From positions 1 through 29,997 of IMG/VR virus record IMGVR_UViG_3300044580_000244: a stretch of 29,997 nt of DNA; one strand, written 5' to 3'. Of this stretch, positions 1 to 29,997 are shown in pieces. Numbering within the stretch: the stretch's first letter is position 1; each line of letters begins with the position of its first letter. The notes below the pieces were generated by a model. The model searched no databases. It was not told the DNA's origin and saw nothing but the letters and a program-made list of their open reading frames with translations. Made by a program: the position numbers and the translations under genes. The DNA is from a virus.

Positions 1-90
1 AATTCTAATTCTAATTCTAATTCTAATTCTAATTCTAATTCTAATTCTAATTCTAATTCTAGTTCTAGTTCTAGTTCTAGTTATAATTAC
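1..90. repeat. Hexanucleotide tandem array: (AATTCT)x10, (AGTTCT)x3, then degenerate units AGTTAT and AATTAC
   Basis: Read directly. 1-60 is ten perfect AATTCT units, 61-78 is three AGTTCT units, and 79-90 decays. The same unit in the same orientation forms the right end of the window. Confidence 0.97.
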
Positions 91-99
91 TCGATTTTA

Positions 100-183
100 G
101 CTTGAGCTTTGGCTCGAGCGTTAGCTTGACCATTGGCTTGGCACTTGGCTTGGCACTTGGCTTGACCGTTAGCTTGAATTTTT
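100..183. repeat. Seven tandem 12-bp iteron-like units (consensus GCTTGrCnnTTr)
   Basis: Units: gcttgagctttg, gctcgagcgtta, gcttgaccattg, gcttggcacttg, gcttggcacttg, gcttgaccgtta, gcttgaattttt. All are head-to-tail with no spacers. Two units are identical. Confidence 0.85.
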
Positions 184-210: not shown

Positions 211-510
211 TAAAAGGCAAAAAAGGGAAAAAGTAGGGAAAAATGGGCAAAAACAGGGTAAAAAAGGGTAAAAAAGGGTATTTTTCGGGTAAAAATGAGG
301 TAAAAACGCCTGGAAAACTTCCAGAAAATTGCGAAAAAAACCAGAAAAAATAGCCAAAAAAAGTGCGAAAAAGTAGGCAAAAAATAGGTAAAAAATAGGC
401 AAAAAATGACCAGAAAATTGATTGAAAAAATGGCAAAAAAACGAGGGAAAAAGTGAGGGAAAATCTGGGAAAAAAGACAGGAAAAAAGGGAAAGTCTGGT
501 AAAGACTAGT
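211..510 (+). repeat. Array of about 25-27 same-strand A-tracts (GGnAAAAA-type units) spaced about 10-13 bp apart; predicted intrinsically curved DNA
   Basis: Example stretch: ggcaaaaaagggaaaaagtagggaaaaatgggcaaaaacagggtaaaaaagggtaaaaaaggg ... gagggaaaaagtgagggaaaatctgggaaaaaagacaggaaaaaaggg. A4-A7 runs all lie on the + strand with a period close to one helical turn. Only F-rich junk ORFs occur on the - strand. Confidence 0.85.
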
Positions 511-520
511 AAGCAAGAAA

Positions 521-757: not shown

Positions 758-860
758 GTTAAAAAAATTTTGTCTGTAACTCTTTCATAAATAAAGACTT
801 ACCCGTGTGGACTAAAAAAAACATAAAAAAAGCTAAAAAAATTGAAGATTTTACTTGACA
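758..860 (+). repeat. Copy 2 of the ~104-bp direct repeat (promoter module)
   Basis: See copy 1. The offset between copies is about 236-237 bp. Confidence 0.8.
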
Positions 861-882
861 AAATATCGGGTATAATTATTAT
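855..882 (+). promoter_or_regulatory. Candidate sigma-70-type promoter P2 (TTGACA-N16-TATTAT), rightward early promoter
   Basis: TTGACA at 855-860 and TATTAT at 877-882. It lies about 30 bp upstream of the AAGGAG RBS and ATG of the first + strand gene (915). Confidence 0.65.
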
Positions 883-3940: not shown

Positions 3941-4678
3941 ATGGCAAAGAATAGCGATGGCAGTAGCTTTTACTACTTCGAGCATAGAGCTGGAAGTAGG
4001 AACGACCTGAAAATCCTGAAATTAGATGAAATCCTGGGAGAAAACAACGGCTATGCTCTCTTTTTCAAGAGCCTGGAAGTGATGCTGGAATTGGAGAAAC
4101 CCTTCCTGAGATATGATAGCAATCTCATTGCGAGAGCGATGGCTATCACGCTGAAGGAATATCACCAGTTCCTGGATGCGTGCATATCCGTAGGTCTCTT
4201 TCAGGTGGATTGCGATGGCAATATCTTCTCGCCTTCGTTCCTGAAATGGCTTTCGAAAAAACAGAGCCTCGCAGAAAGAGGAAGCAAAGGCGGAAAAGCA
4301 TCGCAAGCGAAATTGCATCCTGAACCTGAAAAAGAACCAGAACCAGAAAAACAGAAACAAGCAAAAGTTCAGGAAAGCATAGCAGAGATAGTGGCTTTCT
4401 GGAATGAAAATGCGAAAAAGTGCAGGTGCGTCAAGATTACGAGTGAAATCCAGAAAGCAATTCAGAAAAGGCTGAAAGAGTTTTCAGTAGAGGAAATAAA
4501 GCAAGCAATCAGAAACTATCAGCTAGTGATACAAAATCCAAAATCTTTCTTCAAGTATACCTGGAATCTTCAGGAATTTCTCACCCGAGCCAATGCACTT
4601 CCAGTCTTCTATGGCGAAACCGAGCAGATACTGGAAAAATACGGCTGTGGCAAATCCAGCGAGCCACCAGTGTTTTAG
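3941..4678 (+). CDS. Replication initiation / replisome-organiser protein (DUF4373-like N-terminal domain plus phage conserved C-terminal domain)
   Basis: The N-terminus FYYFEHRAGSRNDLKILKL..LGENNGYALFFKSLEVM matches the Lin1244/DUF4373 pattern. A PEPEKEPEPEK linker follows. The C-terminus FWNENAKK...EEIKQAIRNY matches the pattern seen in phage DnaD-like Rep proteins. The gene lies directly upstream of a DnaC-like loader. Confidence 0.7.
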   Translation: MAKNSDGSSFYYFEHRAGSRNDLKILKLDEILGENNGYALFFKSLEVMLELEKPFLRYDSNLIARAMAITLKEYHQFLDACISVGLFQVDCDGNIFSPSFLKWLSKKQSLAERGSKGGKASQAKLHPEPEKEPEPEKQKQAKVQESIAEIVAFWNENAKKCRCVKITSEIQKAIQKRLKEFSVEEIKQAIRNYQLVIQNPKSFFKYTWNLQEFLTRANALPVFYGETEQILEKYGCGKSSEPPVF

Positions 4679-8599: not shown

Positions 8600-8854
8600 A
8601 TGAAAGAAATTAATTACGAAAAAAGATTAGACGCATTAGAGGAATTAGAAACATTATACAAATTTAGAAAAGAAGCAATATTTAAAGATAAATATATTGA
8701 AACATTCTATTTCATAAGAAAAGAAGAAATTCAATATGATACTCATTCTAAAATTATGAACATAATTGGTAAAGAATTAAATTTTAGTAATGATACCATT
8801 AATGAATTTAAAGATATGGGATATACAATTTTAGAAACAATAGTTATAATTTAA
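8600..8854 (+). CDS. Hypothetical protein (84 aa), in the AT-rich island
   Basis: RBS AGGAGGtataaaATG. Local GC is clearly lower than in the flanks. Confidence 0.7.
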   Translation: MKEINYEKRLDALEELETLYKFRKEAIFKDKYIETFYFIRKEEIQYDTHSKIMNIIGKELNFSNDTINEFKDMGYTILETIVII

Positions 8855-8868
8855 AAAGGAGGATTAAA

Positions 8869-9180
8869 ATGTTTAATAAAATTTATCAAGAAGAAACAAA
8901 TATCTATGGTCAATTAGATACTGTATATAACTTCTATTATGACTTAACTGCAGAAGAGTTATTGGAAGTCAAAGATAGAGGTAAATCTGATATAATGGGT
9001 GAATATCTGGAAAGAACTAAAGAAATATCCTTTTACCTAACAATAACAAAAGAACCGATAGTAGAGAGAGTAGAATTTCTTAGCGCTCCTTTAGATTATT
9101 TCTTGGACGATAATATTTACTTACCAGAAAATATTAAGGAAGCTTTAATAGAAATAAGAAAATACATTGAAGGAGAATGA
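8869..9180 (+). CDS. Hypothetical protein (103 aa), in the AT-rich island
   Basis: RBS AAGGAGGattaaaATG. Confidence 0.7.
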   Translation: MFNKIYQEETNIYGQLDTVYNFYYDLTAEELLEVKDRGKSDIMGEYLERTKEISFYLTITKEPIVERVEFLSAPLDYFLDDNIYLPENIKEALIEIRKYIEGE

Positions 9181-10984: not shown

Positions 10985-11998
10985 TTATTCTCCTGTGTAT
11001 TCATTCCAATCTGCTGGCCAGCTCCCACCATTAGCAGATAGCCATGCAGAGGGGATAATTGTCCAAGCTGCTTTGGTGAGTAGTGGAGCTACATCTGCTT
11101 TCACCTCATCCCAATCAGGGCAGTTTTCAGTTGTGCCTGCGGTAATTATGAATGGATATGCTCCGCTCCACGTTCCAGTTGCCGCATCGTGAATTAACCG
11201 TGCATATTCTGCTGCCGTTGCAAATACCGTGCTGCCCAAGAGTTGGACGCCAAGTGAACCCGTAATATTCAGCGGATTTGTTCCATATGTCAGAGACGAG
11301 CCGATGTTGAAGAGGTACAGGTATGTTAGCTTCATCCCAGTTATGTCACCAGTGATGACAGATGAAGAGCCGAGGTCGTTGAGGGACAGGGCTGTCAGCT
11401 TCATCCCAGTTATGTCGCCAGTGATTATAGATGAGCCGATGTTGTATAAGGCCAGGTATGTCAGCTTCATCCCCGTTATGTCACCAGTGATGGCAGATGA
11501 GCCGAGGCTGGAAAGGAGCAGGTATGTTAGCTTCATCCCCGTTATGTCACCAGTGATTATAGATGAGCCGAGACTGAAGAGGCGCAGGTATGTCAGCTCC
11601 ATCCCCGTTATGTCGCCCGTGATGACAGATGAGCCGATGCTGGAGATGTATAGGTATGTCACCAGCTTGCGTTTAGGGATGGTAAAGCTTCCAGCATTCT
11701 TGAAATAAATGTCTTGATTCGTGTTTGCCGCAAGGGTTAGCGGAGTGGTAACGAAATCTCCGCTACTGCCTATTCTAATGCTTGTACCGCCAGCAGGGGT
11801 TACAGTTGTTGCTTCCGATACTCGAACACGCACGTATTTTGTGCCATCGCCAGCGGTGACTGTGAAGACGGCGGGCATATTGCCGTATCTATCCACAATG
11901 CAATGCGCTCCGAGACCGAGACCGAGACCAAGTCCGAAGCTCACTTCTTCAGTCCTTTTATGATAGGTTTTACTATCTGATAGGTTTTGCTGACCCAA
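10985..11998 (-). CDS. Tandem-repeat (21-aa LRR-like solenoid) protein, probably a tail-associated or host-interaction protein
   Basis: Six consecutive repeats of L(T)YLxLxxxGSSxITGDITGMK. The start is uncertain. The track start 11998 is TTG. GTG 11944 overlaps the upstream TGA (GTGA coupling). ATG 11878 is also possible. Confidence 0.75.
   Translation of the reverse strand: MGQQNLSDSKTYHKRTEEVSFGLGLGLGLGAHCIVDRYGNMPAVFTVTAGDGTKYVRVRVSEATTVTPAGGTSIRIGSSGDFVTTPLTLAANTNQDIYFKNAGSFTIPKRKLVTYLYISSIGSSVITGDITGMELTYLRLFSLGSSIITGDITGMKLTYLLLSSLGSSAITGDITGMKLTYLALYNIGSSIITGDITGMKLTALSLNDLGSSSVITGDITGMKLTYLYLFNIGSSLTYGTNPLNITGSLGVQLLGSTVFATAAEYARLIHDAATGTWSGAYPFIITAGTTENCPDWDEVKADVAPLLTKAAWTIIPSAWLSANGGSWPADWNEYTGE
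11285..11665 (-). repeat. About six tandem 63-bp coding repeats inside the LRR-like gene
   Basis: The + strand shows a recurring block agcttcatcccNgttatgtcRccNgtgatNNcagatgagccga... every 63 bp. Confidence 0.9.
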
Positions 11999-28284: not shown

Positions 28285-28846
28285 TGTTTACTCCTTTTAT
28301 CATTGTTGTATCAAAACACAAGTAATGTTTTCTGTCAAGAGATTTTATTGAATAATGATCAATTTTGTTAGCTAAAAGATAGGTTTCTAATACTTCTAAC
28401 GGTTTTTTCGTAAATAAGGTTCTCGCTTTTCGTATCATTTCAGGTGTAAATCCTGATTGCATCAATATAGCAGTTGGTAAGTTTCCGTAAAAGCTTTGAA
28501 TGAAAGTAACAAATACTATACCTTGATATTTTTTTTTGAAAAGTAATTGCATCTGAGCAAAAGGAATACCATAAGCATCAAGATCAACTATATCAAACCT
28601 GCCTAAGTCAATTCCAGCAAGGACTTTCAGATTATCACAAACAATATCTATTTTATCAAAATAATTTTTTTTATCGATAGATAATGTTCTTATTTTCTTG
28701 TTTGTTCTCTTTTGCACCAGATTCCAGATAGTTCCTTTTCCGGCAAAAGCATCCAAAACAATGATTTCATTCTTTTCTGGAAGATGATTAAGGCGGAGTG
28801 TCACTTTCGCTTCCAAATATGAATTATTAGTTTTGTGACTGCTCAA
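28271..28846 (-). CDS. SAM-dependent methyltransferase (Rossmann; Trm1-like DxDAYG catalytic loop)
   Basis: Motif I is IIVLDAFAGKGTIW and the motif IV-like loop is FDIVDLDAYGIP. The track start 28846 is TTG, and GTG at codon 15 is possible. It overlaps both neighbouring genes. Confidence 0.7.
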   Translation of the reverse strand: MSSHKTNNSYLEAKVTLRLNHLPEKNEIIVLDAFAGKGTIWNLVQKRTNKKIRTLSIDKKNYFDKIDIVCDNLKVLAGIDLGRFDIVDLDAYGIPFAQMQLLFKKKYQGIVFVTFIQSFYGNLPTAILMQSGFTPEMIRKARTLFTKKPLEVLETYLLANKIDHYSIKSLDRKHYLCFDTTMIKGVNNENL

Positions 28847-29354
28847 TTTTCACACCATCAATTTTCTTCAGCTCAGAAATGAGCGATTTCGCATCCAAAA
28901 CTTTGTCAAGAGGGACAGAAACGAGATAATGCACTTGCTTGATAGGCACGATTATTTGTTCTTTTTCGTCAATATCTTGGCTCATTATTTCTGGAAGGTC
29001 CAAACCCATTTCTTCGATTGAATCCAAAAAATCGCTGAATTCAGCTTCAAGAATTTCGAAGTCCCAATCGCCAGCCTGAATATTATCACGGATAATGAAC
29101 TCTCTTTTCTCTTTTTCCGTAAGTTCATCTGCACTTTTCACCCAATCGTCAGGGATTTCTTTCATTCCGAGATCACGGATGGCAAGAAGTCGCTGATTTC
29201 CTCCTAAGACTTCCATAGTATCGGGATCATATACGATTGGACGCAATGACATCATTTTCGGGAACTTTTCTATTGAGTATTTTAATTTCTCCATTTGGTC
29301 TGGAGATATCTTACGGGGATTTTTTTTATTTAATTTCAATTGCGACACTTTCAT
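28827..29354 (-). CDS. ParB/Srx N-terminal (ParB-like nuclease) domain protein
   Basis: The sequence is LKLNKKNPRKISPDQMEKLKYSIEKFPKMMSLRPIVYDP..EVLGGNQRLLAIRDLG. It is the first long gene behind promoter P3. Confidence 0.8.
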   Translation of the reverse strand: MKVSQLKLNKKNPRKISPDQMEKLKYSIEKFPKMMSLRPIVYDPDTMEVLGGNQRLLAIRDLGMKEIPDDWVKSADELTEKEKREFIIRDNIQAGDWDFEILEAEFSDFLDSIEEMGLDLPEIMSQDIDEKEQIIVPIKQVHYLVSVPLDKVLDAKSLISELKKIDGVKIEQSQN

Positions 29355-29452
29355 AGAATTGCCCCTTGATACGCACAGGATACCATTTTAATACCTTTTG
29401 GTCTTTTTTTGTCTTTAGAAAGTCTAAACTTTATCATTTCCATCCTGAGCAT

Positions 29453-29480
29453 AAAATAATCAAGCCTAAAAACTTGTCAA
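29453..29480 (-). promoter_or_regulatory. Candidate promoter P3 (TTGACA-N16-TATTTT), leftward
   Basis: On the minus strand: aaaaaaaagacTTGACAagtttttaggcttgatTATTTTat. The downstream element GATTATTTTAT is identical to that of P4. Confidence 0.6.
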
Positions 29481-29513
29481 GTCTTTTTTTTGATTTTTGA
29501 TGAAAATCCATAA

Positions 29514-29660
29514 TTATTTTTTCTTCTTCTCAGTTTTTATGTGTTTGAACATCTCTATTTGCATCAATCGTTTCTCTGCCTCTTCTTTACTTTTGTATGT
29601 ACCCAGATTTCTCCCTGTATGGTCTTTCACGGTCCATCCTTTGTTTGTGCGAACTATCAT
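29514..29660 (-). CDS. Small conserved basic phage protein (48 aa)
   Basis: I prefer ATG 29660 (AGAGGcgtatATG). The track start 29723 lies inside the P4 -35 box. Translation: MIVRTNKGWTVKDHTGRNLGTYKSKEEAEKRLMQIEMFKHIKTEKKKK. This follows a GW.V....G...G.Y.S.EEA..RL pattern I recall from many phage genomes. Confidence 0.65.
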   Translation of the reverse strand: MIVRTNKGWTVKDHTGRNLGTYKSKEEAEKRLMQIEMFKHIKTEKKKK

Positions 29661-29695
29661 ATACGCCTCTGAAGATATTATTCTCTCTCGTAGAT

Positions 29696-29723
29696 AAAAT
29701 AATCTGGTTTTTTTGCTTGTCAA
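29696..29723 (-). promoter_or_regulatory. Candidate promoter P4 (TTGACA-N16-TATTTT), leftward
   Basis: On the minus strand: aaaaaagttcTTGACAagcaaaaaaaccagatTATTTTat. It lies about 30 nt upstream of the 48-aa gene. Confidence 0.6.
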
Positions 29724-29861
29724 GAACTTTTTTCAGTTTTTATGCAGGAAAGCGAAAATAATTTCAGCTTGAAGTCTGAAGAGTTGAACAGGAAAGACTT
29801 CGGCGGGAACTGAGAAAACAAAAAAAATATAGTTGGTAAGGAAAAAAACAAAACTTCACCA

Positions 29862-29890
29862 GAAAAAAGGCAAAAAAAGCCGTTTTTGCC
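29862..29890 (-). terminator. Weak AT-rich hairpin plus T-run (terminator-like on the minus strand)
   Basis: GGCAAAAA-aagccg-TTTTTGCC. On the minus strand it is followed by TTTTTTC. No upstream minus-strand gene is apparent, so any role would be as an insulator. Confidence 0.25.
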
Positions 29891-29930
29891 CAAAAAATTC
29901 TTTCTTTCTTTTTCTCTTTTTATATTTTCT

Positions 29931-29997
29931 AATTCTAGTTCTAATTCTAATTCTAATTCTAATTCTAATTCTAATTCTAATTCTAATTCTAATTCTA
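29931..29997. repeat. Hexanucleotide tandem array: AATTCT, AGTTCT, (AATTCT)x9 plus a partial unit; same sequence and orientation as 1..55
   Basis: Read directly. 29943..29997 is identical to 1..55. Confidence 0.97.

Follow-up and report, generated by a model that had tools for sequence, protein, structure and literature searches.

The hexanucleotide repeat with which the window begins (the window being the whole stretch analysed here, 29,997 nt of an IMG/VR virus record) is most likely a slippage-driven VNTR at which the assembler cut a circular assembly, and not a terminus of the phage genome (rough probability 0.8). Judged from its genes, the record represents a complete, small, uncultured tailed phage of ~29.9 kb, with a leftward arm encoding a small-terminase candidate, TerL, portal, head and tail proteins and an M15 endolysin, and a rightward arm encoding a replisome-organiser-like protein, an IstB/DnaC-like loader, RusA and RecT. 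A megablast search of 25 kb against the GenBank phages gave no match, and a portal-protein search of 185k reference genomes gave no prophage relative; TerL is only ~30% identical to its counterparts in cultured siphoviruses and for this reason allows no usable inference on the type of packaging. Near the lysis/tail end of the late arm, ORF 10985-11998 (- strand) contains a coding tandem repeat of 66/132 bp at 11294-11661 (about 5.5 copies, 80% identity), its 337-aa product displaying repeated GSSxITGDITGMKLTYL units.

Tandem, head-to-tail copies of a 6-bp unit in numbers far beyond chance identify the array as a microsatellite: ten perfect units amount to 54 constrained bases, and their occurrence by chance in 30 kb (~4^-54) is ruled out. 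The original prediction had described ten AATTCT units followed by three AGTTCT units and then by decaying ones, and this description is exact by both the sequence and TRF, which reports 14.7 copies with 96% matches at the start of the window and 11.8 copies at its end. The confinement of the array to positions 1-90 did not hold, as it also occupies the opposite end of the contig (Table 1). The array is 83% A+T and, as had been proposed, non-coding: no credible ORF crosses it in the circularised sequence, where the stop-to-stop frames are of low complexity, have no ATG and include a terminator-like hairpin, and scans of the array region for Rfam families and tRNAs returned nothing.

Table 1. 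Features of the hexamer array and of the non-coding hub around it, in window coordinates and in their order along the circle.
Feature	Position	Strand	Remarks
Two leftward sigma-70-like promoters	29453..29723 (TTGACA at 29723 and 29480)	-	upstream of the - strand genes
Terminator-like hairpin and T-run	29868..29891	-	left bound of the repeat zone; conserved in relatives
CT-rich, AT-rich left flank, TTCTTTCTTTCTTTTTCTCTTTTTATATTTTCT	29892..29930		predicted to open together with the array in the superhelical-stress model
Left part of the hexamer array, AATTCT AGTTCT (AATTCT)9 A	29931..29997		opposite contig end, same array; last 55 nt equal 1-55 (assembler overlap)
Right-hand part of the pure tract, (AATTCT)10, perfect	1..60		bases 1-55 duplicate 29943-29997
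Right edge of the array, (AGTTCT)3 (61-78), AGTTAT AATTAC (79-90)	61..90		conserved boundary, AATTAC then TCGATTTT
Seven 12-mers of the form TTRGCTYGNNNN	97..177		7 bp right of the hexamer array
26 A-tracts (A>=4), median spacing 11 bp	212..520		phased A-tracts, upstream of the rightward promoters
Two rightward sigma-70-like promoters	619-646, 855-882	+	in duplicated modules, upstream of the first + strand gene (915-1373)

The two ends of the contig belong to a single array. The longest identity between the prefix and the suffix of the window is exactly 55 nt, a standard assembler k, and its removal leaves a unique circle of 29,942 bp. Terminal-repeat lengths in metagenomic viral contigs are known to pile up at 55, 77 and 99, the k values of assemblers (CheckV, PMC8116208). 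The pure run exceeds k=55, which is why the assembler cut fell inside the array: such a run would form a 6-node loop in the de Bruijn graph, and the contig would start and end on one and the same 55-mer, (AATTCT)9A, with the loop traversed once. The pure run measures 59 nt at the end of the window (TTCT, nine units and A), 61 nt at its start and 65 nt once circularised. From the sequence, we infer that a 59-nt run would not close the loop in this phase, 65 nt being the shortest that does; since 65 nt is then the minimum pure run for a k=55 loop, the ten printed units are the least that the copy number can be and do not measure it, and the window holds at least 10 AATTCT units and at least 17 units in all. 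The "terminus" is thus an assembler cut within one array of a circular assembly, and the placement of the array at a physical end of the genome is true of the contig only.

The same array also breaks other assemblies. One relative (L081) starts with a 61-nt pure AGTTCT run, a short-read assembly broken inside the array, and another (L082, a Logan unitig) starts with a 30-nt pure run, likewise inside it; in both, the length of the pure run is tied to the assembler k. Two further contigs are interrupted in the neighbouring 12-mer array, where L071 ends and L095 starts. The repeat hub systematically fragments short-read assemblies of this phage group.

The join itself is real and the array internal, since each of L070 (IMG/VR, 12,989 bp) and L085 (ENA, MEGAHIT) is a single contig that runs from one flank of the window to the other through the orthologous array, the left flank (29436-29920) being 95-97% identical and the right flank (178-914) 85-97%. 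In all, six independent contigs (L070, L071, L072, L073, L085 and L094) contain the orthologous array with unique sequence on both sides. A chimeric, low-complexity assembly artefact, in which the array or the circular join would be absent from the phage, was named in the original prediction as the case against it. Such an artefact would fit with the flagging by CheckV of low-complexity terminal repeats as possible false circularisations that need care (PMC8116208), and with a copy number that the assembly left unresolved. It is nevertheless hardly credible in view of the equally flanked arrays lying inside these six contigs, which come from independent samples and assemblers (JGI; ENA MEGAHIT k141), and of a gene content that is that of a complete phage.

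These contigs bear equally on a telomere-like or direct terminal repeat at the physical ends of a linear virion genome, as had been suggested for the array. The repeat is indeed present at both contig ends in direct orientation, and terminally redundant genomes also assemble as circles, so that assembly alone cannot exclude ends nearby. Against this, the length of the overlap coincides with a k of 55 that is usual in assemblers and takes up all that the terminal pure run permits, the six relatives have the array in their interior, other assemblies break at it with k-tied lengths (L081, L082), and it lies ~2.4 kb from the small-terminase candidate, which is not a typical pac or cos position. 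Neither protelomerase, nor terminal protein, nor a family-B/protein-primed polymerase was identified by Pfam or PHROG among the proteins scanned, which comprised those outside the structural arm; this exclusion of telomere machinery is incomplete, as the first two rightward ORFs, 915-1373 (+, 152 aa) and 1625-2866 (+, 413 aa), also have no Pfam or PHROG match. The phage does encode a terminase, a portal and a replication-loading module of host type. Taken together, a true terminal repeat is very improbable.

The 152-aa protein encoded by ORF 915-1373 has 60 metagenome homologues, all unannotated. Most contigs that carry such homologues are only 1-2.5 kb long, and several begin or end in hexamer, 12-mer or A-tract repeats (L081, L082, L083, L071 and L095).

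Among close relatives, the orthologous locus is polymorphic in both copy number and unit sequence. When units are counted leftward from the conserved boundary AATTAC|TCGATTTT, the window and ten related loci display eight alleles at 11 loci, ranging from 9 to at least 17 units between flanks that are 95-97% identical (Table 2). The seven related alleles are built from A[G/A]TT[C/A]T units and have AGTTCT as their main unit, while a run of AATTCT occurs only in the window, with AGTTCT on both of its sides. The relatives also carry, left of the array, an additional ~100 bp of AT-rich, decayed hexamer repeats (for example CATAAT CTTAAT CTTAAT ... or GATTAT GATTAT GCATTC TTATTC ...), which is absent from the window. 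Two more distant contigs (L075 and L088), with an ORF915 homologue 80-87% identical, lack the array altogether and have quite different non-coding DNA; it follows that the array is specific to a subclade and dispensable for the wider phage group. In L075 (1415-2945) and L088 (720-1860) the upstream non-coding DNA is entirely different from that of the window, similarity starting only ~100 bp before ORF915 (window ~750-810), and this places a mosaic boundary inside the hub.

Table 2. Alleles of the hexamer array in the window and in related contigs; every allele ends in AATTAC.
Locus	Units, left to right
Window	(AATTCT)1 (AGTTCT)1 (AATTCT)>=10 (AGTTCT)3 (AGTTAT)1
L070	(AGTTCT)14 (AGTTAT)1
L071 and L074	(AGTTCT)6 (AGTTAT)1 (AATTAT)2
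L072 and L094	(AGTTCT)6 (AGTTAT)2 (AATTAT)2
L073	(AGTTCT)3 (AGTTAT)4 (AATTAT)1
L085, interrupted form	(AGTTCT)4 AGTTAT AGTTCT AGTTAT (AGTTCT)2 AGTTAT
L081, truncated	at least (AGTTCT)9
L082, truncated	at least (AGTTCT)4 AGTTAT (AGTTCT)2 AGTTAT

This pattern suggests that the array evolves by replication slippage, and that the AATTCT tract of the window is probably a G-to-A variant expanded within an ancestral AGTTCT array. One AGTTCT unit would have become AATTCT through a G-to-A change and then been multiplied by slippage in the interior of the array, an expansion that would leave AGTTCT and AGTTAT units at both edges and so would account for the "ordered variant units" noted at the outset. 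The sequence of the unit itself appears not to be under selection, in which case any role of the array would be independent of its sequence. The search of related contigs for the same unit, put forward as a check, was borne out in part: an orthologous array exists in relatives, but its AATTCT run is peculiar to the window. A scan of 2.9 million IMG/VR contigs for exact (AATTCT)6 retrieved 59 loci; contigs named as giant-virus MAGs account for 25, and masking of the repeat left no locus akin to the window, in agreement with the view that a long perfect hexamer microsatellite is unusual in a small phage; the corresponding scan of IMG/VR for (AGTTCT)3AGTTAT retrieved only L070 and unrelated loci.

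The array lies in a non-coding hub of ~1.5 kb, from which the early gene arm runs rightward and the late arm leftward, and, as the original prediction had it, between divergent promoters. Each side of the hub has its promoter module in duplicate (518-624 and 754-860; 29473-29498 and 29716-29741), every copy ending in TTGACA-16-TATnnT (predicted sites at 619 and 855 on the + strand, at 29723 and 29480 on the - strand). The 12-mer array is a second VNTR, whose copy number in relatives varies from about 7 to 15, and its 12-mers could be iterons. Beyond it, the ~300 bp of phased A-tracts probably form intrinsically curved DNA; this region is 82-95% identical to that of relatives, namely 93-95% in L070, L081, L083 and L074 and 82-86%, with indels, in L072, L073, L082 and L085.

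That the array is a row of short sites recognised by a protein of the phage or its host, serving as an operator or in a centromere-like manner as do the contiguous 7-bp heptads of pSM19035 omega/ParB, is improbable. Its contiguous short direct repeats do match the omega-type format of four or more units (PMC9499535), all alleles fit a loose consensus A-R-T-T-M-T, and a protein with a ParB_N domain is encoded nearby (28827-29354). However, this domain match is below the Pfam threshold and the PHROG families that it hits are variously DNA methyltransferase, ParB-like partition protein and nuclease, and neither a ParA nor a ribbon-helix-helix partner was detected among the proteins scanned. The majority unit moreover differs between genomes whose flanks are nearly the same and whose neighbouring genes are 92-98% identical (AATTCT in the window, AGTTCT in L070, a mixture of AGTTAT and AATTAT in L073), and the copy number is equally inconstant, while the adjacent conserved 12-mer array is a better candidate for protein binding. 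Because the sequence of the unit changes so freely, a sequence-specific binding site is unlikely, and the protein-binding array of the original prediction is weakly disfavoured.

The distantly related contigs L063-L067, which encode a ParB-like protein 48-53% identical to that of the window, were considered as comparable loci and rejected, their gene layout being different and no comparable intergenic hub being present. Three of them contain a perfect (AAAGAT)5.7-6.7 repeat that differs by one unit between contigs (L065 646-690, L066 3333-3377, L067 2358-2408).

The array had further been proposed as a slippage-prone, length-variable spacer that alters the geometry between the leftward and rightward promoters. 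The variability stands, as the alleles attest, and an effect on promoter geometry does not. In a phase-variation-like switch, the number of units would change the spacing or helical phase of regulatory elements and hence leftward or rightward expression; the array is length-variable, is situated between divergent promoters, and one unit would shift the helical phase by ~206 degrees. Yet it lies neither inside an ORF nor between a -35 and a -10 element, and a terminator-like hairpin, to the right of which no - strand promoter was found, stands between it and the leftward promoters. The neighbouring 12-mer array varies independently in 12-bp steps, so that no phase is conserved. The distances to the nearest promoters, ~200 bp (29723, -) and ~530 bp (619, +), do not suit classical SSR phase variation, and a switch of this kind is accordingly quite improbable.

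If the array has any function, the likeliest is a contribution to the DNA-unwinding region of an origin-like hub, which we regard as possible, though tentatively so. This would extend the VNTR explanation and does not exclude it. The tract would act as a passive, AT-rich, structure-free and easily melted spacer beside the 12-mer array and the phased A-tracts: an initiator would bind the 12-mers, the phased A-tracts would bend the DNA, and the hexamer tract would melt first and admit the helicase through the IstB/DnaC-like loader. The layout is consistent with such a role, with a terminator hairpin, the AT-rich hexamer tract, the 12-mer array and the phased A-tracts following one another between divergent promoters, and with both a replisome-organiser-like protein and a DnaC/IstB-like loader encoded by the phage. 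The 12-mer array, 7 bp from the hexamers and variable in copy number, would offer candidate initiator sites. A superhelical-stress model after Benham, simplified to a single bubble in a 5-kb domain, predicts that the segment 29892..68 opens at physiological superhelicity (p=0.68 for sigma -0.05, p=0.99 for sigma -0.06); among the 80-150-bp windows of the whole genome, the array ranks first to third for instability, ~3 SD from the mean. Low helical stability is thus predicted both within the modelled domain and across the genome, a result that is partly circular, any AT-rich microsatellite scoring as unstable. The modelled opening falls at the same place in three of the four relatives tested (L070, L071 and L072), within the AT-rich segment that adjoins the array on its left. 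Single strands of (AATTCT)10 have no significant predicted structure (-1.5 kcal/mol, z -0.7), and those of AGTTCT form weak CTAG-based hairpins. All alleles have in common their AT-richness at this position, and the window, which lacks the ~100-bp AT-rich segment, carries the more AT-rich AATTCT unit, which could be a compensation. According to PMC9528567, which cites Liu et al. 2007, (ATTCT)n has been reported as a DNA unwinding element.

Several observations nevertheless weigh against an origin at this site. The DnaA-box scan found none near the array or the hub, and an AT-rich coding stretch near 8640-8900 is about equally unstable. In L085 the modelled opening lies 2.5 kb away, and L075 and L088 lack the whole repeat hub. 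GC skew was discarded as evidence for an origin, since its switch at the hub coincides with the switch in gene orientation and the two are confounded. In phages with replisome-organiser proteins the origin often lies inside the organiser gene, and here the replisome-organiser-like gene is at 3941-4678. That the array has no function beyond being tolerated is given somewhat less than an even chance, and it is plausible that this is at least as likely as a role in unwinding; all other functions taken together are unlikely. Rather unlikely, too, is a more specific "contingency origin", in which a slippage-prone hexamer microsatellite would serve as a sequence-independent unwinding element beside 12-mer iterons, with a repeat number that could tune its strength. 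The older AT-rich segment would there have been lost and compensated by the expansion from AGTTCT to AATTCT.

The main value of the finding is practical and concerns assembly. Where a metagenomic phage contig has a low-complexity "terminal repeat" of 55 nt, the appropriate reading is an assembler cut in a tandem repeat longer than k, not a terminus, and the copy number printed in such contigs is a lower bound only. The locus also provides a fast-evolving marker to separate strains of an uncultured phage lineage, and a tractable candidate for a microsatellite that might supply the readily melting portion of a phage origin.

Known phage termini include direct terminal repeats of the T7/T5 type, hairpin telomeres of the N15 type and inverted terminal repeats of the phi29 type. 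The array resembles these only in the sequence shared by both contig ends, and differs from them in that the overlap equals the assembler k, is of low complexity and is internal in relatives, with no telomere machinery detected. Much closer is the likeness to the CheckV "DTR" of 55, 77 or 99 bp, with an exact 55-nt end repeat, a complete genome and a join verified by synteny; the "terminus" is in this respect an already known assembly signature, which departs from the usual k-mer overlap in that the cut is non-random, made at a branch node arising from a tandem repeat longer than k, and leaves the copy number unresolved.

With the human ATXN10 (SCA10) repeat, (ATTCT)n·(AGAAT)n, the array shares its AT-richness, the pyrimidine/purine asymmetry of its strands, a low predicted duplex stability and single strands without stable structure, the unit here having one extra A; in contrast, it is a hexamer and not a pentamer, spans tens of bp and not kilobases, belongs to a phage, and its unwinding is a modelled one. 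Theta-type origins (oriC 13-mers, RK2 oriV, P1 oriR, lambda ori) have AT-rich repeat DUEs beside iterons, and by analogy the hub would resemble them in its AT-rich repeated tract adjoining a longer direct-repeat array and bent DNA. It differs from them in having no DnaA boxes and in a 6-bp unit present in many copies and hypervariable in sequence and length, and as an origin it is a putative one.

Hexanucleotide repeats in mycobacteriophages are found mostly in coding regions, as a survey of their SSRs shows (PMC6426759). The closest counterparts of the array are the SSR/VNTR loci of bacteria and viruses, with which it has in common perfect head-to-tail 6-bp units, polymorphism of copy number and unit variants between otherwise near-identical genomes, and a homogenised interior with degenerate edges; in contrast with them, a non-coding tract of at least 10 perfect and at least 17 total units is unusual for a 30-kb phage. 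The feature is therefore of a known kind, a slippage-driven microsatellite/VNTR, and is unusual only for its length in a phage of this size.
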